A stretch of 64,000 nt of DNA, taken from the NCBI GenBank assembly GCA_963823555.1, contig CAWGMA010000001.1, forward strand, positions 960,001 through 1,024,000. Reading direction: 5' to 3'. Shown piece after piece: positions 5,654 to 50,581 of this stretch. Each line of letters begins with the position of its first letter. The stretch's first letter is position 1. This DNA comes from Candidatus Eiseniibacteriota bacterium. GTDB taxonomy: Bacteria > Eisenbacteria > RBG-16-71-46 > CAVPCR01. The notes under the pieces were generated by a model. It was given only the letters and a program-made list of their open reading frames with translations, was not told where the DNA came from and searched no databases. A program made the position numbers and the translations under genes.

Positions 5654-5860
5654 CCGGAGCGCTGGTGGTTGTATCGTCGGCGCCAGCGGTCCCTTAGCAC
5701 CCCGGGCTCCCTCGCGGCCGTGAGGCCGGGGTGAGCCAAGGATCCGAGGATGGGTGGGGCGGGCGTGACCGTCGTGATCCGGCACGGATTCCCCCTTTGG
5801 CGGCGTTCGCACATGGCTGGGCCCTGGCCGCAGGAATCGCCCCCGCCGGCGGCTCCCCGG
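5654..5860 (+). ncRNA. Candidate structured non-coding RNA (long irregular hairpin, possibly 6S-like, or a cis-regulatory leader)
   Basis: Starts just downstream of P1 and ends just before P2; 5' GGAGC-GCTGGTGG pairs with 3' CCGCCGGC-G-GCTCC; internal CACCCCGG/CCGGGGTG stem; no convincing ORF. Confidence 0.4.
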
Positions 5861-5863
5861 GCC

Positions 5864-5892
5864 TTGACGCATCGACTGCAAGTCAATAGATT
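5864..5892 (+). promoter_or_regulatory. Putative sigma70 promoter P2 for the lipoprotein/barrel operon
   Basis: TTGACG-N17-TAGATT about 50 nt upstream of ATG 5945. Confidence 0.6.
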
Positions 5893-5944
5893 AGCGGTCT
5901 TTGTGTGTCATGCTGGGTGGCCAGGCCACCTGGTTGGAGGCTCG

Positions 5945-7231: not shown

Positions 7232-7232
7232 C

Positions 7233-7769: not shown

Positions 7770-7796
7770 GAGACGGGTCGAATGGGGGAGGGACTC

Positions 7797-9236: not shown

Positions 9237-9261
9237 CCCGGGGCGACGCGACGAGGGTGCG

Positions 9262-10875: not shown

Positions 10876-10992
10876 TCCGATCGGCGGGCGCAGGCCCGTC
10901 CGGACTGGGGCAGCACTGGCAAATGTCGCGAGAGGAGGCGGGTGTCGGTGGAAGCCGGCTCATGAGTGGGCAAGGGGTTTCATGGCCAGAAC

Positions 10993-11022
10993 TTGACCGC
11001 TGAGTGATGAGACCCTTAGACT
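10993..11022 (+). promoter_or_regulatory. Putative sigma70 promoter for the TBDR-CTD-PorV operon
   Basis: TTGACC-N18-TAGACT upstream of ATG 11112. Confidence 0.55.
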
Positions 11023-11111
11023 AGCCCCCGGCTGGCGTCCCCAACGACCCGTCCCCCCCCTTGCGGCATAGAAATCGAGCTTGCCCAAGGCAAGTGAGGA
11101 GCTTGTTCGCC

Positions 11112-16688: not shown

Positions 16689-16776
16689 TGGGCACGCGGA
16701 CCTGGCAGGAAGCCCGCCCGGCGGTGCCGGCCGCGGCATGCCGCAGAGGCGGTAGAGGAATCACGGAGGTGGCGTC

Positions 16777-17712
16777 GTGAAGCGTATTAGCCTGCTGACC
16801 CTTGTCCTCGTGCTCGCGGCCTCGCAGGCAGGAGCCACGGAGATCTTCGAGAAGGTGGGCACCATCGGGGGTCAGTTCCTGAAGATCGGGATCGGCGCGC
16901 GGGCCACGGCCATGGGCGAGGCCTTTACCTCCATTGCCGATGACGCGTCGGCCGTCTACTGGAACCCGGCCGGGATCGCGCGTTTGCAGGGGAACACCCT
17001 GAGCTTCAGCCATGCCGCCTGGCCGGCGGAACTCGACCTGAACCAGGGTGCCTACATCTTCTCCGTCGGATTCATCCCCGGCATGCTCGCCGTGCATGCC
17101 CGGGCCCTTTCGATGTCCCCGTTGCTGCGTACCGATACCACCCACCCCGATGGGGACGGCACCTACTTCGATGCCGGCGACTTCGCCTTCGGTGTATCGT
17201 ACGGGCGATCGTTCACCGACAAGTTCTCGGCGGGAATCACCGCCAACTTCGTCCAGGAGACGCTGGCCGACTACGATGCATCCACGGCCACCTTCGATTT
17301 CGGGGTGCTCTACGACACCGGCTATCGTTCCTTGCGCATCGGGATGTCCATCGCCAACATCGGCGCCGAGATGCAGTTCATCGAAGATTCGGTGAAGATG
17401 CCGATCATCTTCCGTCTTGGCAGCTCGATCATGCTCTACCAGCAGGGGGCCCATAATTTCCTGACCGCCGTCGAGTTCTCGCATCCGCCCGACAATGCCG
17501 AGCGCGGCAACTGGGGCGGCGAATACGCGTTCAAGGACTTCTTGTTCCTGCGTGGGGGATACAAGTTCAACTACGATTCGGAAGGCCTGACGGCCGGAGC
17601 CGGCGTCAAGTTCCCGGCTTCCTCCGCGGCCACGGCGAAGGTCGACTACGCGTTCAACGATTTCGAGACGCTGGGCAGCGTTCATCGTTTCTCGGTCGAG
17701 CTGGCGTTCTAG
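16777..17712 (+). CDS. PorV/PorQ-family outer-membrane barrel
   Basis: GTIGGQFLKIGIGARATAMGEAF..IADDASAVYWNPAGIA; FLRGGY; LGSVHRFSVELAF. Confidence 0.88.
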   Translation: MKRISLLTLVLVLAASQAGATEIFEKVGTIGGQFLKIGIGARATAMGEAFTSIADDASAVYWNPAGIARLQGNTLSFSHAAWPAELDLNQGAYIFSVGFIPGMLAVHARALSMSPLLRTDTTHPDGDGTYFDAGDFAFGVSYGRSFTDKFSAGITANFVQETLADYDASTATFDFGVLYDTGYRSLRIGMSIANIGAEMQFIEDSVKMPIIFRLGSSIMLYQQGAHNFLTAVEFSHPPDNAERGNWGGEYAFKDFLFLRGGYKFNYDSEGLTAGAGVKFPASSAATAKVDYAFNDFETLGSVHRFSVELAF

Positions 17713-22476: not shown

Positions 22477-24720
22477 TCACCGCACGACGAGGAGCCGCGC
22501 CGGGCGGGGAACCGCGGCGCCAGCTTCACCCGCGACCTCGATGAAGTAGACCCCCGACGGCAAGGACCTCGCCCCCACCAGCTCGGACCAGCGGACGGTG
22601 AGCCTCCCCGCCGGTCGCACCCCGAGCGCCCGCTCCCGCACCAGCCGCCCGGCGGCATCGTAGAGGTGGAGGACGGCGGGCCCATCCGCCGCCTGCGTCC
22701 ATTCGATCCGCCCCTCGGGCGTGACCGGATTGGGCTCCACCCTGAGCACGAGCGGCGGCACCGGGGCGGCGGGCTCGGCCGCCACCCCGATCGGGGCGGC
22801 GCAGCCGACCTCGAGCGCGCCGACGAGCCCGCACCCCGTGGGGGAGTGGGCCGCGGCGCAGGGTGAGGTCTCGGCGAGGGTGAAGTCGCCGCCGGCCACG
22901 TCGCAGAAGAGAGGATCTTCAGAGAAGCAGCCATTCAACCCGTACTGGTCGGCGATGCAGCCCACCCAGTCGCCGCCGGCGTTGCCATGGATGTCGGTGC
23001 AGGTGAGGACCGGGATCGTCTGGAGGCAGTTCACCGCCGCGCCCTGGGTGCCGAGAGCGATGATCGTGTTGTTGACGCTGATGGTGAGGAGCTCATAGGC
23101 GACATCAAGGCCGCTGCCGAATTCGGCACCGTTCCGGACGAACGTCAGGTGATCGAGGACGACCTCCCCCTGCACCTGGCCGGCCGTGATCCGCGCCCCG
23201 CCGCCGATCGTGGCCGTGTTGCCGTCGAACAGGCAACGCTCGACGCGAGCGGGCTCGCTCATGGGCTCGGGCCCCGAGCCGGTGCGCAGGTACAGGCCGC
23301 CACCCTGGGTGGACCAGTTGCCCGCGAACCGGCAGTCGCGAATGGTGGCCGTCCTCTGGCTTGTGCTCCGGTACAGGCCGCCACCATATTGCACCGCCGT
23401 GTTCTCCACGAACTCGCAGTCGGCGACGGTCAGAGTATCGCCCGAGGTGTAGAGGCCACCGCCGCCAATGGCGGCGTGGTTCCGCATGAAGGTGCAGCGC
23501 TCGATGACGGTCGATCGCGGCCAGCCCGAGGCGCGGAGGCCGCCGCACACGTGGTCGCTCGTGTTGTCGGTGAAGGTGCAATCCTCGATGCGAAGCGGCT
23601 CCCCGCTGACGCTGAGGCCGCCATAGGCACCCTCGGCGTGGTTCCCCGTGAACTCGCAGCGGGCGATGACGATGGGGTCATCCGAATGCAGGTAGGCGCC
23701 GCCACCGTACTGGCCGTTGCCGGGCCCGCCGCCCACGGCCTGATTCCCGGTGAAGACGCAGTCGGACATCGCGATTGCCGGTGCCTGTCTCCAGGTGATG
23801 CCGCCCCCGCCCCGGGGATCGGGGTTCCGGCGCGTGAGCGCCATGTTCTCCGTGAAGCTCGAGCGGGTGAGGGCGAGCGATGAGCTGTCGCCCCAGATGC
23901 CGCCGCCCGAGTAGCCGGCGAGGTTGCCCGTGAAGGTGCACTCGTCGACGGTGAGCGTCGAGCCCTCGAGGCAGTAGATCCCGGCCCCCTCCTGGCTCGT
24001 GTTGGCCTCGAATGCGCAGCCGGAGAGCGCGAGCACCGAGCTCCGGCAGTAGATGGCACCGGCGAGATTGAGGGCCGCGTTCTCCGTGAACGTGCAGTCG
24101 ATCGCGCTCGCGCTCGACCCCCCCGTCAGGAAGAGCCCGGCGCCGTGCCCCGCCATGTTGGCGCTGAACTCGACGCGCGTGAAGGTGGGGGTGGCTCCCG
24201 CCTCGGCGTACACCGCACCACCCCAGTTGTCGGCCGCGTTTCCCGTGAGGGTGCAATCCTCGAACACGGAGGCCGACTGGGCGAGGAAGACGGCGCCGCC
24301 GGTGTTGGCCTGGCAGGTGGTGACGATGCAGTCGCGCACGGTCGGGGAGGCACCCGAGATGTAGAACGCTCCACCGTAGCCCAGGGCGGAGCGGCCGCCG
24401 CGGATCGTGAAGCCCTCGACCACCGCCCCCGCCGGCTCCCCATCATCGAAGAGGAAACACTGCGCCGCGTTCCCGGCGTCGATCGTGGTCGCGCCCGGTG
24501 CGGTGGCCGAGCGCAAGACGACCGCCTTGCCGGCGAAATCGAGGTCCCGGTTGCCGGTCCCCGAGTAGGTCCCGGCGGCGACGAGGACGGTATCCCCGGA
24601 GGATGCCGCGGTGAGGCCGGCCTGGATCGTCGGCTGGTCGGCGGGGACGTGGATCGTGGCGGCGGAGGCGGCGCTGGCGGCGAGGAGGATGACCGCCAGG
24701 CAGAAGGTCACTCTGGCCAT
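22477..24720 (-). CDS. Secreted right-handed beta-helix (Pmp-like GGA/F..N repeat) protein with a C-terminal sorting domain
   Basis: Signal peptide; IHVPADQPTIQAGL; many C.F..N.A..GGG repeats; DPLFCD...DFTL...SPC; C-terminal VEPNP...LYDAAGRLV...SGVYF. Confidence 0.85.
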   Translation of the reverse strand: MARVTFCLAVILLAASAASAATIHVPADQPTIQAGLTAASSGDTVLVAAGTYSGTGNRDLDFAGKAVVLRSATAPGATTIDAGNAAQCFLFDDGEPAGAVVEGFTIRGGRSALGYGGAFYISGASPTVRDCIVTTCQANTGGAVFLAQSASVFEDCTLTGNAADNWGGAVYAEAGATPTFTRVEFSANMAGHGAGLFLTGGSSASAIDCTFTENAALNLAGAIYCRSSVLALSGCAFEANTSQEGAGIYCLEGSTLTVDECTFTGNLAGYSGGGIWGDSSSLALTRSSFTENMALTRRNPDPRGGGGITWRQAPAIAMSDCVFTGNQAVGGGPGNGQYGGGAYLHSDDPIVIARCEFTGNHAEGAYGGLSVSGEPLRIEDCTFTDNTSDHVCGGLRASGWPRSTVIERCTFMRNHAAIGGGGLYTSGDTLTVADCEFVENTAVQYGGGLYRSTSQRTATIRDCRFAGNWSTQGGGLYLRTGSGPEPMSEPARVERCLFDGNTATIGGGARITAGQVQGEVVLDHLTFVRNGAEFGSGLDVAYELLTISVNNTIIALGTQGAAVNCLQTIPVLTCTDIHGNAGGDWVGCIADQYGLNGCFSEDPLFCDVAGGDFTLAETSPCAAAHSPTGCGLVGALEVGCAAPIGVAAEPAAPVPPLVLRVEPNPVTPEGRIEWTQAADGPAVLHLYDAAGRLVRERALGVRPAGRLTVRWSELVGARSLPSGVYFIEVAGEAGAAVPRPARLLVVR

Positions 24721-24781
24721 GGTGGGCCTCATTGGCGGGTCAGCTCTGGAACGGGCTGCGGTTCAGCCGCGTATGCCATGA

Positions 24782-24825
24782 GTCATAGCCCCGTGTCCAG
24801 GGGCTGTCAAGGCTCGTGCTAAGAT
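24782..24825. promoter_or_regulatory. Putative divergent promoters (beta-helix gene / HtrA gene)
   Basis: Minus strand TTGACA-N17-TATGAC (24810-24782); plus strand extended -10 TGcTAAGAT (24817-24825). Confidence 0.4.
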
Positions 24826-24851
24826 CCCCGACCCAAGGAGAACCAACGGCC

Positions 24852-26059
24852 ATGTCGTTTGACCATCGTCCTTCGGCGCTCGTTCGCGTGTCGCCCCTGT
24901 TGCTCTTCCTTGCCGGCGTCGTCGCCGGCGCGATCTGGAGCCCGCGTGCGACGCCCGAGGCCCTGCGCGATCGCGCCGCGCTGGAGGCCCGGACGACCGA
25001 AGCCGCGACCACGGGCGAGGCGCCATCTCCCGGCTCCGTTCCCGTCGCCGCGACCGCGCCCCAGACCGTCCCTGATGTCGCGCGTCACGGGCTCTCGAAC
25101 GAGGAGCGGGAGACGATCGAGCTCTTCCGCGAGGCCTCGCCCGCGGTCGTCTACATCACATCGATGGTCGTCCGCCGGGACATGTTCACCTTGAACGTGC
25201 TCGAGATTCCCCAGGGCACGGGCTCGGGCTTCCTGTGGGACGGCGACGGTCACGTCGTCACCAACTACCATGTGATCCACGGCGCGACCGGGCGCAGGTC
25301 ACGCTCTCCGACAACTCGACCTGGGAGGCCAAGCTCGTCGGCACGGCGCCCGAGAAGGATCTCGCGGTCCTGCGCATCGAGGCGCCGCGCGAGCGCCTGC
25401 AGCCGATCCAGGTCGGGAACTCGGGCGATCTCCTGGTCGGCCAGAAGGTGCTCGCCATCGGCAACCCCTTCGGGCTCGACCAGACGCTCACGACCGGCAT
25501 CATCAGCGCGCTCGGGCGCGAGATCGAGTCGGTGACGAGGATCCCGATCCGGGACGTCGTCCAGACCGATGCCGCGATCAATCCCGGCAACTCGGGCGGT
25601 CCGCTCCTCGATTCCGCCGGTCGCCTGATCGGCGTCAACACCGCCATCTACAGCCCTTCGGGCGCCTATGCCGGGATCGGCTTCGCGATCCCGGTCGATA
25701 CCGTGAAGTGGGTGGTGCCGGACCTGATCACCCACGGCAAGGTCGTGCGCGCCACCCTCGGCGTTCATCTGGCCGCGCTCCAGGTAGGGCGGCGTCTGGG
25801 CATCGAAGGGGCTCTGGTGCTCGATGTCGTCCCCGGGAGCGGGGCTGAGCGCGCCGGGATCAAGCCCACCCGCCGTGATGCCCGTGGTCAGGCCTTGCTC
25901 GGTGACGTCATCGTCGCCATCGACGGCGAGGCGGTGAAGGACAACAACGATCTGATCCTGCTTCTCGAGACGAAGAAGGCAGGGGATCGCGTTCAGGTCG
26001 AGCTCATGCGCGACGGCCGGCGCGAGGCGGTCATGGTCACGCTCACCTCGTCCGACTAG
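24852..26059 (+). CDS. HtrA/DegP-family serine protease with one PDZ domain; split by a -1 frameshift near 25285
   Basis: GTGSGFLWD..GHVVTNYHV (frame 3); DLAVLRI, AIGNPFG, QTDAAINPGNSGGPL and PDZ (frame 2); SD AAGGAG. Confidence 0.9.
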
Positions 26060-29821: not shown

Positions 29822-29897
29822 ACTCGGAGAGGCTCGAGACAGCCGCGCCACGGCCCCGTCGCCATGGTTGCTGCTGGCCCCCCCCAGGAGGTGCTCC

Positions 29898-32657
29898 ATG
29901 ACCCCAGCGTTCCATGCCAGAGCAAGTCACGGTGGGCGCGGTGATCACCGGCATGCGCTCAGCATCATTCTGCCCGTCGCCCTCGTCGCCACGATGCTCT
30001 TGCTCCTCATCGTTTCCGATCCCGCCGGTGCCCGTCAGGAGATTCGCCAGGGGTTCTTCCTCGCCTATCCCTCGGCGGTCGGTTCGCGTCTCGACGACCT
30101 GCCCTCGAACGGCGGGCATTGCGGGGTCTGTCACTACCGCTTCAACGGCGGCGGACCGCGAAACCCCTTCGGAGCCGACGTCCAGGGACGCCTGGGCTCC
30201 TACCCCAGCACGCCGGAGGGATACCGCGATGCGGTTCTCTCCATCGCAGGCGAGGACTCGGATGGCGACGGATACGACAATGGCATCGAGATCACCGATC
30301 TGGCCAACTATCTCAACACCCCGACATTCCCCGGGCTCACCCCCGGCAATGCCGGCCAGACGAGCCAGGTCGCGCTCGGCGACATCCAGGACTACCTGGT
30401 CCCCGTCCCCGGGACGGACGAGACGCCTCCGGTCGTCACGGTCCTCACGCCGAACGGAGGCGAGGACCTGACCGGGCATGCGCCGTTCGCCATCACCTGG
30501 ACCGCCACCGACGAGAACGGTGTGGCTCGCGTCGACATCTCCTTCTCGACCGACGGCGGAACCACCTTCAAGCCGCTCGCGCTGGCGACACTCAACGATG
30601 GCTCGTTCACCTGGTTCGTGCAGGACTACCCGGGCGGATCGACGCTCGTACGGGTCGAGGCCTGGGACCCGAGTGACAATCACGGCAACGACCTGAGCGA
30701 TGCTGCTTTCACCATCACATCGCCGCAAACAGGTCTCGTGCCGACCACGCTTCGCGATTTCGACATGCCTGGCACGCAGCCGCTCGAGGCGGGCGCGATC
30801 CAGTCCGTGAACGAGTGCCGGCAGTGCCATGGCGGCTACGACCAGGCCGTCGAGCCGGTATGGAACTGGGAGGGCTCGCTCATGGCCAATGCGGCCCGCG
30901 ATCCCCTCTTCTATGCCGCGCTCGCCATCGCCAACCAGGACGCGCGTGACTCGGGAGACCTTTGCCTCCGCTGCCACACTCAGCAGGGCTGGATGGCCGG
31001 CCGCTCGACGCCTCCCGATGGGTCCGAGCTCGTCCTCGGCGATCGCGAGGGGGTGAGCTGCGATGTCTGCCACAGCATGGTGGATCCGATCTACGAGCCG
31101 GGGGTGAGCCCGCCCGAGGACCAGGCCATCCTGGCCGCGCTCGCCCTGATCCCGCCCGATGTGGCGAGCGGCATGACGGTGCTCGATCCCTCGAGCGCCA
31201 AGCGGGGACCGTTCACCGATCCCTTCCAGGCCAACCATGGCGTCATCCCCTCGCCTTTCCATCGCGAGGCGGCGATGTGCGGGACCTGCCACAACGTGTC
31301 GAACCCGGCTTTCTCGAAGCAGCCGGATGGGCGTTACGCGCCGAACGATTTCGACACGCCGGCCCCGAGCTTCGACCCCTACGAGCAGTTCCCGGTGGAG
31401 CGCACGTACGGCGAGTGGCTCATGAGCGAGTACAACACGCCAGGCGGCGTCTACCAGCCTGAGTTCGCCGGGGCCAAGCCCGACGGCTACGTTTCGACCT
31501 GCCAGGACTGCCACATGCGCGATGTGGTCGGCCGGGGCGCCGGACAGCCGGCGGGTGTGCCGATCCGGCCCGATCTTCCGCTTCACGACATGACGGGTGG
31601 CAACACCTGGATGGCGGACGTCATTCCGGACCTCTATCCGGGCGAGGTGACGCCCGCTGCGCTCGACGACGCCGCGATCCGGACGCTCTACATGCTCGAG
31701 CACGCTGCATCGCTCGAGGTCGAGGTGGCATTGCAGCAGGGGGTTCCGGTGGCGATCGTGACCGTGACCAACGAGACCGGTCACAAGCTCCCGACGGGCT
31801 ACCCCGAGGGCCGGCGCATGTGGATCAATGTGCGGGGCTACAACCAGAGCAACGAGCTCGTCTACGAATCCGGCGCCTACAATGCCGCGACCGGCGAGCT
31901 CTCGCATGACGACGATCTCCGCCTCTACGAGGCCGAGCTCGGGATCAGCCCCGGACTGGCCAGCGCGCTGGGGCTCGATGACGGGCCCTCGTTCCACTTC
32001 GTGCTCAACGATTCGGTCTACAAGGACAACCGGATCCCGCCGCGGGGCTTCACCAATGCCGGCTTCGAGCTGGTGCAGGCGACCCCGGTCGATCCCGACT
32101 GGCCGGGTCCGGGACCGCGCTACGAGGACGGGCAGTACTGGGATGTCGCCGAGTACGACCTGCCGGTGGCCACCGATCGGCTCGAGGTCGTCCTCTTCTA
32201 CCAGACGACGTCCAAGGAGTACGTCGAGTTCCTGCTCGCGGAGAACTCGAGCAACGAGGCCGGGACTACCATGCACAACGCCTGGACCGCGCACGGGAGG
32301 GCGGCCCCGGTGGCGATGGTGACCGAGATCGTCGATGTCGGTACGGTCGCTGTCGGCCCGGCCGGGACACCGCCCGTGGCCTTCGGTCTCGAGCGTCCGG
32401 CGCCGAACCCGTTCCGGGGAGCTGGAACGCTCGCCTACCGGTTACCGGCCGCAGGGCAGGTGGAACTCGCGATCATCGACGTCCAGGGGCGGCGCGTGCG
32501 GACGCTCGAGGCCGGGACCCAGGCCGCATCCGGCATCCACCGGGTCGCCTGGGACGGCCGCGACGACGCCGGCCGCGAGCTGGCCTCGGGGCTCTACTTC
32601 GTCCGGCTCTCGAGCGGCGGCCAGGTCGCGGTCGAGCGGCTGGTCCTCGTCAAGTAA
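29898..32657 (+). CDS. Hexaheme c-type cytochrome with an Ig-like domain and a C-terminal FlgD/T9SS-A-like sorting domain
   Basis: SD AGGAGG; signal peptide; CGVCH, CRQCH, CLRCH, CDVCH, CGTCH, CQDCH; C-terminal PNPF...IIDVQGRRVRTL...WDGRDDAG..LASGLYFVRL. Confidence 0.9.
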   Translation: MTPAFHARASHGGRGDHRHALSIILPVALVATMLLLLIVSDPAGARQEIRQGFFLAYPSAVGSRLDDLPSNGGHCGVCHYRFNGGGPRNPFGADVQGRLGSYPSTPEGYRDAVLSIAGEDSDGDGYDNGIEITDLANYLNTPTFPGLTPGNAGQTSQVALGDIQDYLVPVPGTDETPPVVTVLTPNGGEDLTGHAPFAITWTATDENGVARVDISFSTDGGTTFKPLALATLNDGSFTWFVQDYPGGSTLVRVEAWDPSDNHGNDLSDAAFTITSPQTGLVPTTLRDFDMPGTQPLEAGAIQSVNECRQCHGGYDQAVEPVWNWEGSLMANAARDPLFYAALAIANQDARDSGDLCLRCHTQQGWMAGRSTPPDGSELVLGDREGVSCDVCHSMVDPIYEPGVSPPEDQAILAALALIPPDVASGMTVLDPSSAKRGPFTDPFQANHGVIPSPFHREAAMCGTCHNVSNPAFSKQPDGRYAPNDFDTPAPSFDPYEQFPVERTYGEWLMSEYNTPGGVYQPEFAGAKPDGYVSTCQDCHMRDVVGRGAGQPAGVPIRPDLPLHDMTGGNTWMADVIPDLYPGEVTPAALDDAAIRTLYMLEHAASLEVEVALQQGVPVAIVTVTNETGHKLPTGYPEGRRMWINVRGYNQSNELVYESGAYNAATGELSHDDDLRLYEAELGISPGLASALGLDDGPSFHFVLNDSVYKDNRIPPRGFTNAGFELVQATPVDPDWPGPGPRYEDGQYWDVAEYDLPVATDRLEVVLFYQTTSKEYVEFLLAENSSNEAGTTMHNAWTAHGRAAPVAMVTEIVDVGTVAVGPAGTPPVAFGLERPAPNPFRGAGTLAYRLPAAGQVELAIIDVQGRRVRTLEAGTQAASGIHRVAWDGRDDAGRELASGLYFVRLSSGGQVAVERLVLVK

Positions 32658-33167: not shown

Positions 33168-33340
33168 GTCGGATGGGTGAAGGCTCCACGATCCGCAAGG
33201 AAAGAGGAGCTCCCGGCGAGACCCCTCGGCGGGACACCTGGCCCGACTCCTACGATCACGCTTCGTGTCCCGGAAACGGTCGCACGACGCACCACGATAG
33301 AAGGGCAGCTCAATCGAGAGCTGTCTCCTCTCCCGGAGGT
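33168..33340 (+). ncRNA. Candidate structured 5' leader of flp (three-way junction plus hairpins, GNRA loops)
   Basis: GTCGG/CCGAC + TGGGTG/CACCTG close two hairpins (one with a GCAA loop); CCG-GAAA-CGG hairpin; GGGCAGCTC/GAGCTGTCT; CCTC can pair with the SD. Confidence 0.4.
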
Positions 33341-33347
33341 AAGAACC

Positions 33348-33515
33348 ATGCTTCGCAAGCTCAACACCCTGCTCCGTCGCGACGAAGGTAACGACATGAT
33401 CGAGTACGCGCTCATCGCTGCCTTCATCTCGATCGTCGCCATCGTGGCTCTGCAGGCCATCGGTCCGCTGGTCCTCGGGATCTACCAGGACGTTCAGGCG
33501 GCCCTCGGCGGCTAG
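33348..33515 (+). CDS. flp: Flp/Fap type IVb pilin
   Basis: SD GGAGGT; RRDEG/NDMIEYALIAAFISIVAI Flp motif, 55 aa. Confidence 0.92.
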   Translation: MLRKLNTLLRRDEGNDMIEYALIAAFISIVAIVALQAIGPLVLGIYQDVQAALGG

Positions 33516-33566
33516 ACCAGAGACCACTCTCGCGAACCTGGAAGATATCGGGGGCCCGAGATCAAC

Positions 33567-34118
33567 GTGTCTAATCTAAGCGCCACCATACCGGCTGGTC
33601 CGTTCTTGCTGGGTGCGCTCGTGCTCACACTCATCGCGGCAGGTTGGGATCTCGCCACCCGGCGGATTCCCAACCTGCTCACGATGACCGCCATGGCCCT
33701 GGGCGTGGCCGGTCATCTCGTGATGGGGCGGGAGACGGGACTCGCCTGGTCGTTGGCCGGTCTCTGCGTTGGTCTCGGGCTCCTCTTGGTCCCCGCTCTC
33801 ATCGGTGGCATGGGCGGGGGCGATCTCAAGCTGATGGGGGCGGTCGGTGCCATCGTCGGTCCCCTCGCCGTGTTCGAGATCGCGTTGGTGTCCGCGGTGG
33901 CCGGGGGAATCCTGGCGTTCGCGGTGGCGCTCCGGCGCAGGGTCGCGCGTGCGGCCTTTCGCCAGGCGTTCGCCCTCGTACGTCCCGGTTCCTCGTCGGA
34001 TGCCGCATGTTCCCCTGACGATGCCGCTCCAGCGCCCGGTGCCCTCGGCACCATCCCCTACGGAGTGGCGATTGGTCTTGGCACCTGGGTTTGCCTGCTG
34101 GGTCATGGGCCGCTCTGA
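33567..34118 (+). CDS. cpaA: A24 prepilin peptidase (TadV/CpaA)
   Basis: WDL.TRRIPN, GMGGGDLKLM, IPYGVAI. Confidence 0.9.
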   Translation: MSNLSATIPAGPFLLGALVLTLIAAGWDLATRRIPNLLTMTAMALGVAGHLVMGRETGLAWSLAGLCVGLGLLLVPALIGGMGGGDLKLMGAVGAIVGPLAVFEIALVSAVAGGILAFAVALRRRVARAAFRQAFALVRPGSSSDAACSPDDAAPAPGALGTIPYGVAIGLGTWVCLLGHGPL

Positions 34119-34320
34119 TCGTTCGTGATCGGCCCCTGGTCCAGCGCACGCAATGAATCAGGACGAAACGGACCCGATCTCCGCCTAACCCGCGGGGGGA
34201 CGGTCCGAGATGGCGTGCTCATCTAAGGCTCCGGAACTCGACGCGCCGAGGGCAGCACCCCCGGCGGCAGGGACCGTGTCCGGGCGAGCGCGCGGCCGGT
34301 AAGCGGCCGGGAGGATTTCT

Positions 34321-35193
34321 GTGCGCCACCGAGGTGGAGTCGTCGCTCTGGTCCTGGCCATCCTCTTTGGCCTCCTGGGCGGCGCGACGACCCTGATCTA
34401 TCTGCGCCAGGCCGGCGCCACCAACGCGTCCTCGTTCCCCACGCTGCCCGTCGTGGTGGCCACGTCCGATCTCACTTTCGGCACCGTCATCAAGCCGGAG
34501 CACGTGAAGGTCGTCAACTACCCGAAGGAAAGCGTTCCCGTTGGCGCGTACACGGACCCGGATTCCCTGGTCGGACAGACCACGAAGGTTTTCCTGAACT
34601 CACGCGAGCCGATCCTCGCCACCAAGCTGTCATCGGTCGGTGGCGGTCTTTCGGTCCGCATTCCCCTCAACATGCGCGCGACGAGCATGAACGTGAACGT
34701 CGTCTCCGGGGTCAGCGGGTTCGTGCTGCCTGGCGACCGCGTTGACGTGCTGGTCGTCATCGATCGCACCAATCAGCAGAAGGATGCGGTCACGCGCACC
34801 ATTCTCCAGAACATCGAGGTGCTTGCCGCCGGTCAGAAGACCGAGCAGAAGGGCGACGACCCGATCAAGGTGCAGTCGGTCACCCTGCTCGTCGATCCGG
34901 AGGGCGCCGAGCGGCTCGCGCTCGCGCTCCATGAAGGCAAGCTCCATCTCGTCCTGCGCAACCCGGCGGATCAGGAGATCGCCGACGTCAAGGCGTACTC
35001 GACGGGCGACATGCTCGGAGAGAAGGCCACGAAGCCGGCACCACGTCCCGTCGTGCGCAGGAGGGAGCCGCCGAAGCCCGCTCCGGTCGCCGAGGTCAAG
35101 CCACCCGAGAAGCAGACCGTCACGCTGATCAAGGGTGTCAAGGTCGAGGAGAAGGAGCCGGCGATGCTCGATAAGAACGGATCGAGTGACTGA
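34321..35193 (+). CDS. cpaB: Flp pilus assembly protein CpaB/RcpC
   Basis: N-terminal TM, SAF domain, GVSGFVLPGDRVDV, LQNIEVLA, VTLLV.P..AE.L.LA...G.L.LVLRN. Confidence 0.93.
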   Translation: MRHRGGVVALVLAILFGLLGGATTLIYLRQAGATNASSFPTLPVVVATSDLTFGTVIKPEHVKVVNYPKESVPVGAYTDPDSLVGQTTKVFLNSREPILATKLSSVGGGLSVRIPLNMRATSMNVNVVSGVSGFVLPGDRVDVLVVIDRTNQQKDAVTRTILQNIEVLAAGQKTEQKGDDPIKVQSVTLLVDPEGAERLALALHEGKLHLVLRNPADQEIADVKAYSTGDMLGEKATKPAPRPVVRRREPPKPAPVAEVKPPEKQTVTLIKGVKVEEKEPAMLDKNGSSD

Positions 35194-35299
35194 TTGAACC
35201 CCGGAGGCGGCTCCGTCCAGCCGCTGCCGGCGCTCGACGACGCGTAAGAGCAAGGAATCACCAGACCGCGGCAATGGCCGCAATCAGAGGGCTTACCTC

Positions 35300-36418
35300 A
35301 TGAGAACCATGATCCAGGCGCACGCCGTGCGTCGCCTTCCGATCGCGCTGCTCATCGGCGTGGCCGTGCTCGCCCAGGCCGCCGTCGCCAGTGGAGCGGC
35401 ACCCGAGCAGCTGTCCGTCACGCTCAAGAAGTCGACGCTTCTCGAGCTCGGCCTGCCGGTCGAGACGGTCTCGATCACCGACACCGATATCGCCGACTTC
35501 GTCGTGGCAGCGAAGACCCAGGTTCTGATCCACGGCAAGAAGGAAGGGACGACGTCCCTCGTGGTCTGGGTCCAGGGCGGCAGCCACCGGAGCTTTGATC
35601 TCGTCGTTCAGCGCGGTCCGGCTCCCAAGCAGGTTCAGCTCAGCGTCCGCGTCGCCGAGGTCAACCAGACCAAGCTCACGCAGTACGGCATCGACTACCT
35701 CGTGCGCTCCTTCGAGGGGCCGCGTAGTGACCGGGCGGCCGGCGTCTACCCGGGGAACGTCGCCAAGCCGGCGATCCCGCTCGCCGCGGGTTCGCTGCCC
35801 GAATACCCCGACGACTCCGACATCGTGCTGCGCTGGATCAAGGGTTCGGAGCAGTACGAGATGATCCTGCATGCCCTGCAGCAGAACGGTTTCGTCAACG
35901 TGCTCGCCCGTCCCGATCTGATCTGTGTCGATGGCAAGGAGGCGAGCTTCCTCGCCGGCGGCGAGATTCCGGTGCCGGTGGCTCAGACCTCCTCGGCCGG
36001 TGGGACCACGGTGACGGTGGAGTGGCGCGAGTTCGGCACCCGGCTCAACTTCAAGCCCACCATCGTCGACGACAACGTGGTCCATCTCCGCGTGGAACCG
36101 GAGGTCTCGATTCTCGACTACACCAACGCCGTCGTCATCGGAGGCTACGTCGTGCCGGCGCTGCGCACGCGGCGCGCTGACACCGAGGTCGAGCTCCGTG
36201 AGGGCGAGAGCTTCGTCATCGGCGGTCTCGAGTCGCAGGCGGAGCGGAGGATCGAGGACAAGATTCCGATCATCGGGGACATCCCGCTCCTCGGCTATCT
36301 CTTCCGCAGCATTGACAAGCAGATGGAGACGAGCGAGCTCATGATCGTGGTGTCGCCGAAGATCGTGAACCCGCTCCGGTCGGATCAGGTGCCGCCGCTA
36401 CCAGGAGAGAAGAAGTAG
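35300..36418 (+). CDS. cpaC: Tad secretin CpaC/RcpA (short form)
   Basis: QVQLSVRVAEV, ASFLAGGEIP, EFG..L.F.P, VEPEVS, IGDIPLLG.LFRS. Confidence 0.9.
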   Translation: MRTMIQAHAVRRLPIALLIGVAVLAQAAVASGAAPEQLSVTLKKSTLLELGLPVETVSITDTDIADFVVAAKTQVLIHGKKEGTTSLVVWVQGGSHRSFDLVVQRGPAPKQVQLSVRVAEVNQTKLTQYGIDYLVRSFEGPRSDRAAGVYPGNVAKPAIPLAAGSLPEYPDDSDIVLRWIKGSEQYEMILHALQQNGFVNVLARPDLICVDGKEASFLAGGEIPVPVAQTSSAGGTTVTVEWREFGTRLNFKPTIVDDNVVHLRVEPEVSILDYTNAVVIGGYVVPALRTRRADTEVELREGESFVIGGLESQAERRIEDKIPIIGDIPLLGYLFRSIDKQMETSELMIVVSPKIVNPLRSDQVPPLPGEKK

Positions 36419-36523
36419 GGGGCAGGTAAAGGGCCAGGCGGCGCTTCGAGTCCGCCTGACGTCGATCGCGGTCCGCGACCGCTCCGGCCGCCGGATCCCG
36501 CGATCATCGAGAGAGAGGTCATC

Positions 36524-37864
36524 GTGGAGCTGAAAGTCCTCGTCGTTGATGCCGACCAGTCGATCCGGCAGTCCATCCGCAACATGCTCCAGAGCCATGG
36601 TGATGTCGAGATCGCCGGCGAGGCCGAGGATGCGGCCGCCGCCCGGCGTCTGGCCACCGAGCGGCGTCCGGATGCGGTCCTGCTCGAGATCGGTGAGCGT
36701 GCGGAGGAGGCCTTTGCCCTGGCGGAGTGGCTGAGGGTCGAGCAATCGGATGCGGCCGTGGTGATGACATCCTCCGCGGTGCGCCCGGAGGTCATGCGCC
36801 GGGCGATGCGCGCCGGTGCTCAGGACCTGATCGCGCGGCCCGTGGATGCCTGTCAGCTGCAGCAGGCTCTCGACCACGCCATGCAGCAGAAGGCCCTGCG
36901 TCTCCGCGCCCTCGGCGCCCGGGGGATGGTCACCGCGGTGCTCGGGGTCAGCGGTGGCATCGGAACCACCACCATCGCCACCAACCTGGCTGTCGGCATG
37001 GCCCCGGACTTCGGTCCGGTCGTTCTCGTCGACTTCGACTTCGACATGGGGGCGGTGCCGAGTTTCCTCGATCTCGGACCGGAGCGCACCTACCTGGATC
37101 TGCGCCGGACCAGCGAAGGCCTCGATGCCGATGGACTCCGGCAGTTCACCCCGCGCCATCGCACGGGGGTCTTCATGCTCGCCGGCCCGCAGAAGCTGGA
37201 GGAGCTCGACGAGGTCACGCCCGACGACATCGGGAAGGTGCTCAACCTGTGCCGCTCCGCCTTCCGGCAAGTGGTGGTGGATGGAGGGCACGGTCTCGAC
37301 GAGCGCCGGATCGAGGTTCTCGATCGGGCGGATCGCATTCTCCTCGTGACCCAGTTGAGTGTGGTGTCGCTGCGCAATGCGCGCCGGGTCATCGAGCTCA
37401 TGGGCCGCCTCGGATATCAGGACGGTCGCATCAAGCTCGTGGCCAACCGGGTGTCCAAGAGCAGCGGGGTCACGTCGGAGGACGTCGAGCGCAGCCTCGG
37501 CCAGAAGCTCGATTTCCAGGTCTTCAACGACTACCCGGCGGCGATCGACGCCATCGACACCGGCGTGCCCATGGTGGAGGGCAGCCGGAAGTCGCGGGCT
37601 GTGGCCGATCTCCTGGCCATGGCGCGCGACCTGGCCGAGGCGACACCGTCCAAGGCTGCGGCCAAGATCGGAGCCGCGGCATTGGCTGGCGGGGCCGCCC
37701 GCGGATCCACCACTGGAGCCAAGGCGGCCGGGCTCGCGGCCGATGCTGCGGGAGCGAGCGGGCGTACGGGTGGGGGCTCCGCGGAGCCCCGGCGTGAGGA
37801 ACGGACGGAAGGGGTTCTCCGGCGCTTCATCTTCGGCGCGCCGGGAACCAAGGAAAGGGACTAG
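36524..37864 (+). CDS. cpaE: CpaE/TadZ (pseudo-receiver plus MinD/ParA-like ATPase)
   Basis: AMRAGA.D; GVSGGIGTTTIATNLA; LVANR. Confidence 0.88.
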   Translation: MELKVLVVDADQSIRQSIRNMLQSHGDVEIAGEAEDAAAARRLATERRPDAVLLEIGERAEEAFALAEWLRVEQSDAAVVMTSSAVRPEVMRRAMRAGAQDLIARPVDACQLQQALDHAMQQKALRLRALGARGMVTAVLGVSGGIGTTTIATNLAVGMAPDFGPVVLVDFDFDMGAVPSFLDLGPERTYLDLRRTSEGLDADGLRQFTPRHRTGVFMLAGPQKLEELDEVTPDDIGKVLNLCRSAFRQVVVDGGHGLDERRIEVLDRADRILLVTQLSVVSLRNARRVIELMGRLGYQDGRIKLVANRVSKSSGVTSEDVERSLGQKLDFQVFNDYPAAIDAIDTGVPMVEGSRKSRAVADLLAMARDLAEATPSKAAAKIGAAALAGGAARGSTTGAKAAGLAADAAGASGRTGGGSAEPRREERTEGVLRRFIFGAPGTKERD

Positions 37865-37867
37865 GTC

Positions 37868-39289
37868 ATGGCTCTCAAGGACCGACTGGCGTTTCGCGGC
37901 AAGCCCGGCCCCGAGGACAAGAAGCCTCCGCAGACCGATGGGGCGCTCGCGCTCAACCGCGAGCGGGATCGCGGGCGCGAGGCGGCGCGCGAGCGAGACC
38001 GGGAACGCGAGCGGATGGCGGTGTTCGATCCGCTCCTCGACCGCCTGCGCGGCGCCATCCTCGAGCGTCTGAACTTCCTGCGCGTGGGGGAGATGTCGAA
38101 GGAAGACCTTCGGCGCCAGATCCGCCACGTGGTCGAGGTCCTGATCGGTGAGATGAACCTCGATCTCAACGAATCGACCCGGGCCCAGATCCTGGAGAGC
38201 ATCGAGGACGAGATGCTGGGGCTGGGACCGATCCAGCAGTTCATGCGCGATCCGATGATCTCCGACATCCTGGTCAACGGGGCCAAGCAGGTCTACATCG
38301 AGCGCTTCGGCAAGCTCGAGATGACCGATACCACGTTCCGGGACGATCAGCACGTGATGCAGATCATCGAGCGCATCGTGTCGCAGGTCGGCCGGCACAT
38401 CGACGAGTCGTCGCCGATGGTCGACGCCCGCCTCGAGGACGGCTCGCGCGTGAACGCGATCATTCCCCCGCTGGCGCTCGACGGGCCGATGCTCTCGATC
38501 CGCCGGTTCGGCACCCGCACCTTCGACATGGAGGATCTGCTCGAGTTCGGAACCCTGACCCGCCCGATCGCCGAGTTCCTGCAGGGAGCCGTGCGGGCGC
38601 GCGTCAACATCCTGATCTCGGGCGGCACCGGGTCCGGAAAGACGACGCTCCTGAACGCGCTGTCGGCCTTCGTTCCGGCCGACGAGCGCATCGTCACCAT
38701 CGAGGACTCGGCCGAGCTCCAGCTCCTGCAGCCGCACGTCGTCCGCCTCGAGACCCGGCCGCCCAACATCGAAGGCCGGGGGCGGGTCACGCAGCGCGAT
38801 CTCGTTCGCAACGCGCTCCGCATGCGTCCCGACCGCATCATCGTCGGTGAGGTCCGTGGCGACGAAGCGCTCGACATGATGCAGGCGATGAACACCGGCC
38901 ACGACGGCTCGATCACCACCATGCACGCCAACTCGACCCGCGACGCCCTCTCCCGTCTCGAGACGCTGGTCATGCTCTCCGGCTTCCAGATCCCCGACCG
39001 CGCCATCCGCGAGCAGGTGGCTTCCGCGCTCGAGCTCCTGGTCCACGTCAGCCGCATGTCGGATGGCACCCGCCGCTTGACCAACGTGAGCGAGGTCGTG
39101 GGTATGGAGGGTGACGTCGTGACCACGCAGGACATCTTCGCCTTCCACAAGCAGGGGGTGGGGGAGGACGGCAAGGTACTGGGCCGGCATCTGGCGCTCG
39201 GCGTGCGGCCGGTCCTGATGGAGCGACTCAAGACCGCCGGCGTGCATCTCGATCCCGAGATGTTCGCCCATCCGGATGAGGTGCGCTGA
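37868..39289 (+). CDS. cpaF: Tad assembly ATPase CpaF/TadA
   Basis: GLGPI, ISGGTGSGKTT, TIEDSAEL, LRMRPDRIIVGEVRG, AMNTGHDGS. Confidence 0.97.
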   Translation: MALKDRLAFRGKPGPEDKKPPQTDGALALNRERDRGREAARERDRERERMAVFDPLLDRLRGAILERLNFLRVGEMSKEDLRRQIRHVVEVLIGEMNLDLNESTRAQILESIEDEMLGLGPIQQFMRDPMISDILVNGAKQVYIERFGKLEMTDTTFRDDQHVMQIIERIVSQVGRHIDESSPMVDARLEDGSRVNAIIPPLALDGPMLSIRRFGTRTFDMEDLLEFGTLTRPIAEFLQGAVRARVNILISGGTGSGKTTLLNALSAFVPADERIVTIEDSAELQLLQPHVVRLETRPPNIEGRGRVTQRDLVRNALRMRPDRIIVGEVRGDEALDMMQAMNTGHDGSITTMHANSTRDALSRLETLVMLSGFQIPDRAIREQVASALELLVHVSRMSDGTRRLTNVSEVVGMEGDVVTTQDIFAFHKQGVGEDGKVLGRHLALGVRPVLMERLKTAGVHLDPEMFAHPDEVR

Positions 39290-40245
39290 TGTTCTTCATT
39301 CTCACCGGGGCGCTGGCCTTCCTGGCCATTGTCTTCCTGACGATCGGGTTCTCCTCGTTCGGCAAGAACCAGCGGGAGGAGGCCATCCGGCGCCGCCTGG
39401 CGCTGGGGGACGGGCCGGTCGACGCCCTCGATTCCTCGATCTTCCGCGCCGATCAGATGAGCTCGATCGGGGCCGTCAACCGGATCCTGAATCAGCTGCA
39501 CATCGCCCGGCGGGCCGGAAGCCTGCTGACGCAGGCCGGGATGTCCATGAAGGTGAGCGTCTTCTTCTTCCTGAGCCTGGTCTCGGGGGTCATCGCCGGC
39601 TATGTCGCGATGCTCTTCCTGCATGAGTTCTCGCTCGCGCTTCTCGTCTTCGTCGCGGCGGGTCTCATTCCACTGGTCGTCGTGCTGGGCAAGCGGGCGC
39701 GCCGGATGAAGCTCTTCAGCGAGCAGTTCCCGGATGCGCTGGACATGATCGTCAATGCCCTCAGGGCGGGCTTCGCCCTCGGCGGGGCGATCCAGATGGT
39801 GGCCGAAGAGGCGCCGGAGCCGGTGGCCACCGAGTTCCGCATCCTCTTCGAGGAGCAGAAGCTCGGGCTCGACATCCGGCAGGCCATGGTCAACTTCTCC
39901 GACCGCAACGCCTCGACGGATGCGGCGATCTTCGCCACGGCGATCATGATCCAGCGGGATACGGGCGGCAACCTGGCCGAGGTGCTGGAGAAGATCGCCT
40001 ATGTGATCCGCGATCGCTTCCGCATCCTGGGCGATGTCCGGACCTTCACGGCACAGGGGCGACTGTCGGGGTTCATCCTCGCCCTGCTGCCGATCTTCCT
40101 CGGCATCGCGATCTCGATCATCAGCCCCGGCTACATGGATCACCTGTTCGAGGATCCGATGGGCTCGGTGCTGATCACGACGGCGGTGATCCTTCAGGTC
40201 GTGGGTTTCCTCACCATCCGGAAGATCGTCAACTTCAAGGTCTAG
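39289..40245 (+). CDS. tadB: TadB (T2SSF-family inner-membrane protein)
   Basis: QFPDALD.IV.ALRAG, IQRDTGGNLAEVL, TAQGRLS. Confidence 0.93.
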   Translation: MFFILTGALAFLAIVFLTIGFSSFGKNQREEAIRRRLALGDGPVDALDSSIFRADQMSSIGAVNRILNQLHIARRAGSLLTQAGMSMKVSVFFFLSLVSGVIAGYVAMLFLHEFSLALLVFVAAGLIPLVVVLGKRARRMKLFSEQFPDALDMIVNALRAGFALGGAIQMVAEEAPEPVATEFRILFEEQKLGLDIRQAMVNFSDRNASTDAAIFATAIMIQRDTGGNLAEVLEKIAYVIRDRFRILGDVRTFTAQGRLSGFILALLPIFLGIAISIISPGYMDHLFEDPMGSVLITTAVILQVVGFLTIRKIVNFKV

Positions 40246-40267
40246 AGCCGGAGCGCGGGAGCAAACC

Positions 40268-41193
40268 ATGAATCTCGTCTTGAGTCTGGCCTTCCTCGCC
40301 ACCGCCTTCCTCTTGGCGGCGGTGGCCACCCGCTCGCTGATGGTGCGGCGGAGCGCCACTGTCGAGCGGCGTTTGCGCGAGATCGCGCCGGGCGCCGATG
40401 GTGAGGGGGGGCGCCGCTCAGGGAGCCCGCCGGGCCCCTGACGCGGCTCCTCATGTTTGCCGCCACCTTCATGCCGGGCTCGCTCCGGGGGCGGGGCCTC
40501 CGCGAACAGCTCGCCGGCGCCGGGTTCTACAACATCGATGCCGTGCCCATGTTCGTCGGCTCGAAGCTGGTGGGAGCCGCGGTGGCGGCTCTCCTCTGCT
40601 ACGAGATCGGCGTGCTCCTGCACCACGCGCCATCCCAGCAGGCGCTCTACGGCCTCATGGGCGGTGTCGCCGGTTTCCTGGCCCCCTCGATCTGGGTGTG
40701 GTCGCGGGCCACGAGCCGGCGCGAGGCCATTCGCCTTGCGCTCCCCGACGCGCTCGATCTCCTCGTGGTCTGTGTCGAGGCGGGACTCGGCCTCAACGCC
40801 GCGCTCGTGCGTGTGGGCCGGGAGCTGCGCTGGAACTGCCGCCCGCTCTCCGAGGAGCTGGCGCTCATCAACCAGGAGATGCGGGCCGGCTTGCCGCGCA
40901 ACGTGGCGCTACGCAACTTCGCCGGCCGGGTGCCGGTCCCGGATATCCAGTCGCTGGTGGCGATGTTCGTCCAGACCGACCGCTTGGGCACGTCGATCGC
41001 GCGCTCGCTCCGTGTGCACGCCGATTCCTTGCGCACCAAGCGCCGGCAGCGCGCCGAGGAGAAGGCCCGGGCGGCGACGATCAAGCTCATCTTCCCGCTC
41101 GTGTTCTTCATCTTCCCGGAACTCCTGGTCGTGATCCTGGGACCGGCCGGCATCCGGCTCTGGAACACGCTCCGGGAAGTGGTCGACAAGTAG
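40268..41193 (+). CDS. tadC: TadC; split by a -1 frameshift, probably in the G7 run at 40405-40411
   Basis: N-terminal TM from ATG 40268 stops at 40439; the downstream frame has LPDALDLLVVCVEAGLGL, QTDRLGTSI, RRQRAEEKA, KLIFPL. Confidence 0.88.
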
Positions 41194-41270
41194 TGAAGGT
41201 CGTGGTGCTCGGCCGCGAGACATCGCGAGCCGGGCGCTCCGGCGCCAGGGCGCCGGCGGAGGCTGCAACG

Positions 41271-41693
41271 ATGCTCAAGCGCAAGCCAGGTCTCGCAAGT
41301 ATTCGCACCCGGATCGGCGGGGCGAGGGGCAACGCCATGATCGAGCTCGCGCTCCTCCTGCCGCTCCTCCTTCTCGTGCTCTTCGGGATCACCGAGGTCG
41401 GGCGCGCGATCGCGACCACGGCCACGCTCAACGCCGCCGCCCGGGAGGGAGCGCGCATCGCCGCGGTCACCGCCCCGAACGTCGCTGCCGTGAACACCCG
41501 GATCAACGAGGTGCTGGCCGCGGCCGCGGTCACGCCGAGCTCGATCACGGTCGAAGGGCCGGTCGGGACCTCGGAGCAGACGGTCACGGTCACCGTGCGT
41601 TCAGACTTCGATGTGCTCTCCGGCACCATTCTCGACTCCTTCGCGGGCACCATCACGCTTCGCGGCGTGGCGGTCATGCGCCACGAGAGCTAA
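41271..41693 (+). CDS. tadE: TadE-like pseudopilin
   Basis: SD GGAGG; RG/NAMIELALLLPLLLLVLFGI.E...AAREGAR. Confidence 0.9.
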   Translation: MLKRKPGLASIRTRIGGARGNAMIELALLLPLLLLVLFGITEVGRAIATTATLNAAAREGARIAAVTAPNVAAVNTRINEVLAAAAVTPSSITVEGPVGTSEQTVTVTVRSDFDVLSGTILDSFAGTITLRGVAVMRHES

Positions 41694-41761
41694 CCGGCCG
41701 TACACGGGCCGGTGCCCACGATCCCGGCCCGTCCAGTTCGCGCCAGAGTGATGAGGACGCC

Positions 41762-50580: not shown

Positions 50581-50581
50581 C

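Follow-up and report, generated by a model that had tools for sequence, protein, structure and literature searches.

How would a c-type multiheme cytochrome that ends in a type IX secretion system (T9SS) sorting domain reach the cell surface, and what might it do there? The question is raised by P0001, a 919-residue protein encoded in a 64,000-nucleotide stretch of a Candidatus Eiseniibacteriota genome (assembly GCA_963823555.1, contig CAWGMA010000001.1, positions 960,001 to 1,024,000 of the forward strand), hereafter the window. A sequence-only reading of the window had taken the protein for a hexaheme cytochrome that is exported by means of its C-terminal domain (CTD) and serves in extracellular electron transfer. 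The first half of that proposal gained support. Export is likely, judging from genes of the host (the genome that carries P0001), from the way in which the tail tracks the SprA pore among relatives, and from a model of the CTD on PorV. The second half fared less well, and mineral-directed electron transfer is weakly supported. In the reading that we favor, which we regard as an even call, this protein with six CxxCH motifs, a PHC core and a CTD would be exported as a holo-cytochrome via SprA and PorV and would probably act as a redox enzyme, either bound to the surface or released.

Domain layout of P0001

The features of the gene, in window positions, are as follows.

29886..29891, plus strand: Shine-Dalgarno sequence AGGAGG, 6 nt upstream of the ATG, read from the sequence
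29898..32657, plus strand: whole gene, an open reading frame (ORF) of 919 aa; AlphaFold2 (AF2) model with mean pLDDT 90.9
29898..30032, plus strand: predicted Sec signal peptide over residues 1-45, cut between A-G-A and R46, from hydrophobicity and conservation at -3/-1/+1
30033..30413, plus strand: N-terminal monoheme domain (46-172), weakly temptin-C-like, H-C-x-x-C-H at 74-79, from PF24784 and Atlas
30420..30725, plus strand: Ig/Fn3-like spacer (~175-276), from Big_7 and 3PDD (Z 11.8, root mean square deviation, rmsd, 1.7 over 92)
30726..32339, plus strand: pentaheme PHC core with its own Ig-like domain (277-814), from the 5ZE8 fold match and hhalign to a small PHC family (99.9%)
30816, 30963, 31059, 31278 and 31500, plus strand: CxxCH motifs of the core, from the sequence
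32370..32654, plus strand: type A CTD/FlgD-Ig sorting domain (~825-919), from profiles, fold and the PorV model

No promoter or terminator consensus was found around the gene. The sole strong hydrophobic stretch of the protein lies at residues ~19-45, and the A-x-A end before R46 is kept in homologs, in agreement with the signal peptide called by the sequence-only reading. In the AF2 model, which was built with 105 sequences, residues 1-19 have low pLDDT and are followed by a single helix (19-39). The six CxxCH motifs that had been counted are likewise present, at residues 75, 307, 356, 388, 461 and 535. They consume all 12 cysteines, and 20,000 shuffles of P0001 never gave more than one such motif. 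The idea of a single hexaheme unit, however, has to be revised. The Ig spacer separates the N-terminal domain, with one heme, from the PHC core, with five. This spacer matches Big_7 at residues 178-248 (26.9 bits versus a cut-off of 24.1) and had also been recognized earlier. The N-terminal domain, which holds an acidic loop (D-x-D-x-D-G) in addition to its heme motif, can be placed only weakly as temptin-C-like from its sequence: Temptin_C (PF24784) gives 22.5 bits (E 1.7e-4) and does not reach its cut-off of 27, NF041762 also scores under its cut-off, and in Atlas the domain stands at 0.94 to the Temptin_C cluster on 184 of 256 features, with just 5 of the 10 best family hits in agreement. 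The domain is optional, being carried by 80 of 119 homologs.

At the other end of the protein, FlgD_ig matches residues 850-906 (53.9 bits versus a cut-off of 27) and the type A CTD family TIGR04183 matches residues 836-916 (32.9 versus 23); PF18962, at 25.9 bits, falls slightly under its cut-off of 27. Fold matches to this domain include the CTDs of PorU (6ZA2, Z 11.8) and mirolase (8QB1, Z 9.4), PorZ (5M11, Z 9.2) and FlgD (3OSV, Z 9.0). A flagellar FlgD was considered and rejected, because the same domain terminates 261 unrelated ORFs and the T9SS CTD structures score equally well or better. As the sequence-only reading had noticed, the domain is of the same type as that of other CTD proteins in the window, which lie at 13821-16688 (plus strand), at 22477-24732 (minus strand) and in an ORF that starts at ~62476 and runs off the window. 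Like the type A cargo of Bacteroidota (RgpB, PorU, PorZ, mirolase; TIGR04183/PF18962), the CTD of P0001 is a seven-strand sandwich with a D-x-x-G-R loop and a terminal strand, and modeling predicts that it may bind PorV. Unlike that cargo, its passenger is a c-type multiheme protein and its host has no detectable GldM.

Export machinery and the distribution of the tail

A T9SS-like translocon, the lack of which was to count against the sequence-only reading, is present in the host genome (4.62 Mb, 92.5% complete). SprA (TIGR04189, 450.8 versus a cut-off of 200) and PorU (NF033707, 475.2 versus 420) are both over their cut-offs, and a PorV-family gene (190.7 versus 90) lies directly downstream of PorU; PorV was found in 41 of 41 genomes of the phylum. 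Genes for cytochrome c maturation are there as well, namely CcsB (TIGR03144, 230.4 versus 187.6), ResB (246.4 versus 24.6) and four matches to PF01578. With these parts, P0001 would be exported to the periplasm by Sec, receive its hemes from CcsB and ResB, and then fold. Its CTD would be captured by PorV inside SprA and the protein then released, and PorU would likely cleave the CTD and anchor the product.

The step at PorV was modeled with the PorV of the host. The pair scored 0.90, compared with 0.09 for the best of three controls, passing a mark that 116 of 157 solved pairs and 2 of 215 mismatched ones attain, which shows likeness to solved complexes and not binding as such. Agreement between runs was at least 93%, and the pLDDT of the partners was at least 87. 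Predicted contacts include residues 860-869, in the loop between beta3 and beta4, and residues 916-919, in the terminal strand. These coincide with two motifs that the available text of PMC11285876 describes as required in Porphyromonas gingivalis CTDs.

The CTD is widespread in the host. A custom profile found it in 261 ORFs, with 263 of 266 domain matches at the C-terminus, and four of these ORFs, P0001 among them, contain CxxCH. The other three are listed here by locus.

L121:454-1962, plus strand: CTD-tagged CcP/MbnH-type diheme protein
L122:389-1279, minus strand: CTD-tagged monoheme choice-of-anchor-V protein
L123:372-1544, minus strand: CTD-tagged monoheme choice-of-anchor-V protein

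Relatives of P0001 are numerous, and their tails differ by lineage. The core was matched by 7352 of the 8000 scored candidates; counts of clusters at 50% do not serve as a family size here, since Ig-repeat proteins inflate them (the core is present in 109 of the 150 listed). Members occur in 65 of 151 genomes of the host phylum; Bacteroidota, Planctomycetota, Verrucomicrobiota, Zixibacteria and others have them too, and identity across phyla is 50-60%. Some taxon labels in the records seem mistaken (e.g., Bifidobacterium, Alphaproteobacteria); they were not altered. The closest named relative, a Candidatus Eisenbacteria protein, is 84% identical over the core and has neighbors in common with P0001. 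Of the 119 best homologs, 85 have a CTD at their end, and 64 combine it with six motifs. CTD tails were seen in Eisenbacteria, Krumholzibacteria, Latescibacteria, Zixibacteria, Ignavibacteria, Gemmatimonadetes and Bacteroidota; tails in Planctomycetota are mostly dockerin- or EF-hand-like, and the Verrucomicrobiota tail is unannotated. The dockerin family PF00404 was detected in 9 of 33 non-CTD tails at E<=0.01, four of them over the cut-off, and other tails of extracellular type include IPTL-CTERM (over its cut-off in P0252), CBM96 and malectin. Two kinds of tail recur without a family match, an F-Y/M-R-x-x type of ending in members of the Verrucomicrobiota clade and, in other members, a short ending of the form Y-x-P-hydrophobic (L019, L035, L039, L043, L069, L072, L075; P0298, P0306, P0308, P0338, P0379). 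We take these to resemble lineage-specific sorting signals.

A survey of relatives across genomes, of the kind suggested along with the sequence-only reading, linked the tail to the pore. SprA was sought in all 80 host genomes of the family, and 74 loci were left once six homologs cut before their end had been dropped. A CTD occurred together with SprA in 40 loci and without it in 1; the remaining proteins had no CTD, 9 of them in genomes with SprA and 24 in genomes without. Thus, the CTD tag is nearly confined to hosts with an SprA pore (40 of 41 CTD loci). Two of the nine proteins scored as having no CTD in SprA genomes carry PF18962, the Bacteroidota-type CTD, over its cut-off. On a tree of the core (75 rows, FastTree), the tail labels need six changes, at least four of them forced.

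The pentaheme core and its candidate active site

Among 48,161 chains, the sole clear fold match of the core was 5ZE8 (Z 22.8; 340 residues at rmsd 2.8 and 22% identity; Foldseek E 7.5e-14), the low-potential pentaheme cytochrome c552 (LPC) of Thermochromatium tepidum. This member of the PHC family has the pentaheme plus Ig-like fold in common with P0001. Its 385-residue solved chain lacks the N-terminal heme domain, the spacer and the CTD, whereas P0001 has large insertions. A second relative is MccSep/ExtKL (GSU2937-2936; 9WT8, NF040886), the polysulfide reductase of Geobacter sulfurreducens, which also has five CxxCH motifs and an Ig-like domain; the loop after a conserved G-H that bears its catalytic residue has an equivalent in P0001. 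NF040886 itself gives P0001 26.1 bits versus a cut-off of 250. A search of the Protein Data Bank with the single sequence returned just FlgD and a weak OcwA match; profiles were needed to reach the relatives, and they reach MccSep weakly. A core-only AF2 model was poor (pLDDT 57.1; Z 12.7 to 5ZE8), and AvECN and MccSep are absent among the fold matches listed, those of this poor model included.

According to the available portion of its description, heme 2 of MccSep is catalytic, with Cys239 as ligand and Sec325 adjacent, and the protein is a soluble tetramer that fractionates as periplasmic (10.1101/2025.11.18.688581). We mapped this site onto P0001 by transitive sequence alignment, using a small PHC paralog of the host genome as a bridge. 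The profile of the small PHC family aligns to 5ZE8 (E 3.4e-30), to 9WT8 (1.7e-11) and to the profile of the core (99.9%). Three elements stand out.

30882..30884, plus strand: Met329, with His at the equivalent site in 5ZE8, MccSep and small PHC paralogs
31398..31403, plus strand: Glu501-Arg502, in the loop with the heme 2 Cys ligand in MccSep (C239/C240) and Cys241 in 5ZE8, the latter opposite Glu501
31800..31802, plus strand: Tyr635, aligned with the selenocysteine (U325) of MccSep

Met329, which is kept in 105 of 105 homologs and at 79 of 80 genome loci, is likely a ligand of a His/Met heme. Glu501 and Arg502 are both invariant (105/105 homologs, 80/80 loci), as is Tyr635 (105/105, 80/80 and, in the wider set, 119/119 homologs), and E501, R502, Y635, E637, R639 and R640 are all present at 80 of 80 loci. 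Among representatives farther away, His or Phe is sometimes found at the Tyr site, and the Glu site is not constant. The core has the PHC fold but, by this alignment, is not an MccSep, because the positions of the Cys ligand and of the Sec hold V500/E501 and Tyr635 instead of the His/Cys239 heme 2 and Sec325 of the periplasmic tetramer. We propose that the clade may offer a third active-site chemistry on the MccSep fold, with a Glu/Arg/Tyr pocket in place of Cys/Sec. Position 548, which is Cys in 87 of 105 homologs and Ala here, was rejected as the equivalent of C239, since C239 comes before heme 5 and position 548 after it.

How might such an enzyme work? Outside the cell, electrons from partner enzymes or small reductants would enter by the N-terminal heme and the heme chain, in which one heme is probably His/Met through Met329. 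They would then reach core heme 2, where the pocket of Glu501, Arg502 and Tyr635 would replace the Cys/Sec pair of MccSep and a small oxidant would be reduced. Bacterial diheme peroxidases have a His/Met entry heme and a distal Glu at the catalytic heme. Because a His/Met entry heme and a Glu-lined catalytic heme resemble that arrangement, peroxide or oxygen chemistry is the single most likely activity by analogy, although we would call even this guess doubtful. Sulfur or nitrogen oxyanions come next and seem less probable again; two things speak for considering them, namely that the related enzymes act on sulfur and that the pocket is rich in Arg. As for the source of electrons, GSDH-type sugar-dehydrogenase propellers, co-exported or fused, are the most likely candidates on the strength of gene and domain associations. 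Fusions of GSDH to the core were seen in 4 of the 49 distant representatives that were scanned and in 4 of 302 core-bearing proteins (custom hidden Markov model), and three more fusions come from a non-random sample chosen for long frames. The host genome has two stand-alone GSDH+CTD genes, one of which (C1:846282-848378) lies directly upstream of a monoheme choice-of-anchor-V+CTD gene. Other distant representatives are fused to CBM96, malectin or a lysyl-oxidase-like domain. All these fusions point to extracellular redox chemistry linked to carbohydrates, which favors an exported enzyme.

Conservation of the pocket also bears on two readings in which the core would not be catalytic. An exported redox buffer or sensor, that is, a heme capacitor or radical sink shielding surface enzymes, would suit a stand-alone gene that has no conserved partner and occurs in hosts of many phyla, and the conserved His and Met residues are sufficient to close all hemes. 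Nevertheless, an identity of 50-60% across phyla and an invariant charged pocket exceed what a capacitor needs, and we consider this role quite improbable. Polymerization of the core into a cytochrome nanowire once the CTD has been removed is still more improbable. The idea comes from the reported relation of the PHC fold to archaeal AvECN, on which four hemes of small PHCs superpose according to the accessible part of PMC11976967. It sits poorly with the bulky N-terminal domains of the family, with dockerin, PKD and GSDH fusions at both ends, with the conserved pocket and with the description of MccSep, in the partial source cited above, as a soluble tetramer.

Three side observations concern the same folds. 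The host has two tail-less PHC paralogs, at L089:5207-6358 (minus strand) and L090:3334-4731 (plus strand), with Met and Thr, respectively, at the Sec site. The first adjoins a cytochrome b-multiheme fusion and the second a beta-propeller lipoprotein. At L127:554-9508 (plus strand), a 2985-aa frame contains two tandem GSDH+pentaheme units, one CTD and 10 CxxCH motifs, which may be a real duplication or the result of a lost stop.

Alternatives, a possible electron circuit and genomic setting

Several points weigh against an enzyme exported by T9SS. GldM was not found in the host or in any of 61 genomes of the phylum by a search that was positive in 2 of 2 Bacteroidota; GldK scores only below its cut-off in the host, and GldN and PorP were not found there (the GldN search had no positive control, and GldL was not searched). 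These were profile searches, by which divergent homologs could be missed. In Flavobacterium johnsoniae, substrates remain stuck on the translocon when the motor is absent, as stated in the consulted part of PMC10994853 and likewise in that of PMC12635249, where the motor is needed for release. The association of tail and SprA follows phylum, and its Fisher p of 5e-11 is inflated by kinship; similarly, the PorV-CTD score may reflect the model's memory of solved complexes of like kind. With respect to the active site, the MccSep Cys position was mapped transitively, without coordinates, and is ambiguous by one residue (V500 or E501). The conserved candidate ligands M329, H447, H455, H563, H629 and H700 could fill every heme and leave no open site. 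GSDH, assigned by family match, is fused to only ~1-8% of members, and peroxidase genes are neighbors at just 5 of 80 loci.

The undetected motor speaks for a reading in which P0001 is not exported at all and is kept in the periplasm, where the characterized PHC relatives reside according to the partial text on MccSep fractionation; a few distant members are also tail-less (e.g., P0355, P0363, P0376). Still, we think this improbable given the 261 CTD proteins and the over-cut-off PorU of the host, the canonical CTDs borne by Bacteroidota members whose genomes have both SprA and GldM, and the extracellular-type modules (dockerin, IPTL-CTERM, CBM96, malectin) that take the place of the CTD in other phyla. 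The motor gap is bridged in part by the cultured flavobacterium Gilvirhabdus luticola MJ-SS3. Its genome encodes a pentaheme member whose CTD is canonical (TIGR04183, 40.9), as well as SprA, GldM and a CcsA-family gene. The available text of PMC12611786 and PMC11285876 already reports SprA outside Bacteroidota. The host, with SprA, PorU, PorV and 261 CTD proteins, has a T9SS-like system in which no GldM, GldN or PorP was detected. The host also has 21 matches to peptidase C25, far more than a single PorU, with six in tandem within ~26 kb (C1:490795-516153).

If the protein is exported, it might instead pass electrons from respiration on to minerals, humics, electrodes or partner cells via a separate porin-cytochrome conduit, a role close to that proposed by the sequence-only reading and one that draws on the same evidence for export as the enzyme does. 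In the host itself such a relay is possible, judging from its own conduit-like clusters. Among 37 host ORFs with at least two CxxCH motifs, one strand of L085:2400-14265 carries a barrel-like ORF (no family match), a 14-heme gene, a 4-heme gene, ResB and CcsB, facing 9-heme lipoprotein, NrfH-like and 11-heme/cytochrome b genes; this region is a candidate porin-cytochrome conduit. At L086:4970-12802, a 36-motif DmsE-type cytochrome is accompanied by more CxxCH-bearing frames, apparently frameshifted, whose homology to OmcS was not confirmed in a weak test on two single frames. In addition, the PHC protein PtdA belongs to a proposed porin-cytochrome operon, according to the available part of 10.1101/2023.11.21.568154. 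As a rule for the family, however, the relay does not hold, because a DmsE/MtrA-type decaheme matched in only 19 of 34 hosts (E<=1e-15; over the cut-off in 5) and not in the other 15, Gilvirhabdus included (some genomes being incomplete), and because no porin or multiheme gene was a conserved neighbor in 81 loci. The fold is also of enzyme type, the invariant non-ligand residues of its altered pocket suit catalysis better, and the OmcA/MtrC family scores nowhere near its cut-off. We therefore consider the relay unlikely.

MtrC and OmcA are surface lipoproteins exported by type II secretion, and OmcS, OmcZ and AvECN form wires outside the outer membrane. P0001 is a multiheme c-type protein like these, but it has another fold, no lipobox Cys and no conserved porin partner; PF22113 on the whole protein gives 25.5 bits, below its cut-off of 30. 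[quoted passage not shown] The available descriptions place them in the periplasm or link them to conduits and mention no sorting tail, whereas P0001 has a CTD.

Neither the fold nor the tag is new by itself; what is new within the literature searched is their combination and a clade with a changed active site. No T9SS-exported cytochrome is described in that literature, which excluded most subscription papers and bioRxiv supplements. By term search, "cytochrome" and "heme" are absent from the T9SS cargo review PMC11205867, the combination of T9SS and cytochrome is absent from 10.1101/2025.05.29.656830, and "cytochrome," "heme" and "peroxidase" are absent from the five readable supplementary files of PMC12618676. 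A wider proposal, which we advance tentatively, is that, throughout the FCB group, holo c-type cytochromes are exported by type IX secretion, a route so far overlooked for them, even where GldLM cannot be recognized. It would export hexaheme, CcP/MbnH-type diheme and monoheme choice-of-anchor-V proteins and GSDH propellers as an extracellular electron circuit, with the PHC clade and its Glu/Arg/Tyr heme site as the hub that couples sugar oxidation to oxidants or minerals. If this were true, cytochromes would have one more way through the outer membrane, and tools that seek extracellular redox proteins by their similarity to Mtr/Omc or linkage to porins would miss a family that is found in 65 of 151 genomes of one phylum and in other phyla. 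It would also raise the question of how SprA/PorV/PorU systems run without a detectable motor. Direct tests are within reach, since one member belongs to a flavobacterium that is in culture and has both SprA and GldM.

The gene stands by itself and is flanked by housekeeping genes (alanine dehydrogenase, CoA transferase) and by a tad cluster. The two largest clusters of neighbors in the survey were rejected as opposite-frame shadows of the gene itself. CcP/MauG-family diheme genes within 6 kb account for the five peroxidase neighbors mentioned above, three of which end in a CTD-type tail. The sequence-only reading had also pointed to PorV-like barrels in the window, and one of them is secure.

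16777..17712, plus strand: PorV/PorQ-family barrel (NF033709, 202.7 versus a cut-off of 90)

Two other ORFs (7782-9236 and 9262-10875) have PorV-like scores below the cut-off only. The secure gene lies ~12 kb away, with no evidence of linkage to P0001, and the PorU-adjacent PorV is located elsewhere. The secure gene belongs to an outer-membrane cluster (5750-17712) that also contains an EB_dh-domain protein, a BamG/PorV-like ORF, a TonB-dependent receptor and a CTD protein without any other Pfam match. The TonB-dependent receptor (11061-13821) and a DegP-like protease (24816-26059) each appear split over two frames, and BatD appears in two ORFs (50561-52418); such split frames in the window are probably assembly frameshifts. 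Directly downstream of P0001, at 33200-43009, is a Flp/tad pilus cluster (pilin, A24 peptidase, CpaB, secretin, ATPase, TadE/G), whose genes are common only to the locus of the closest relative, L005.

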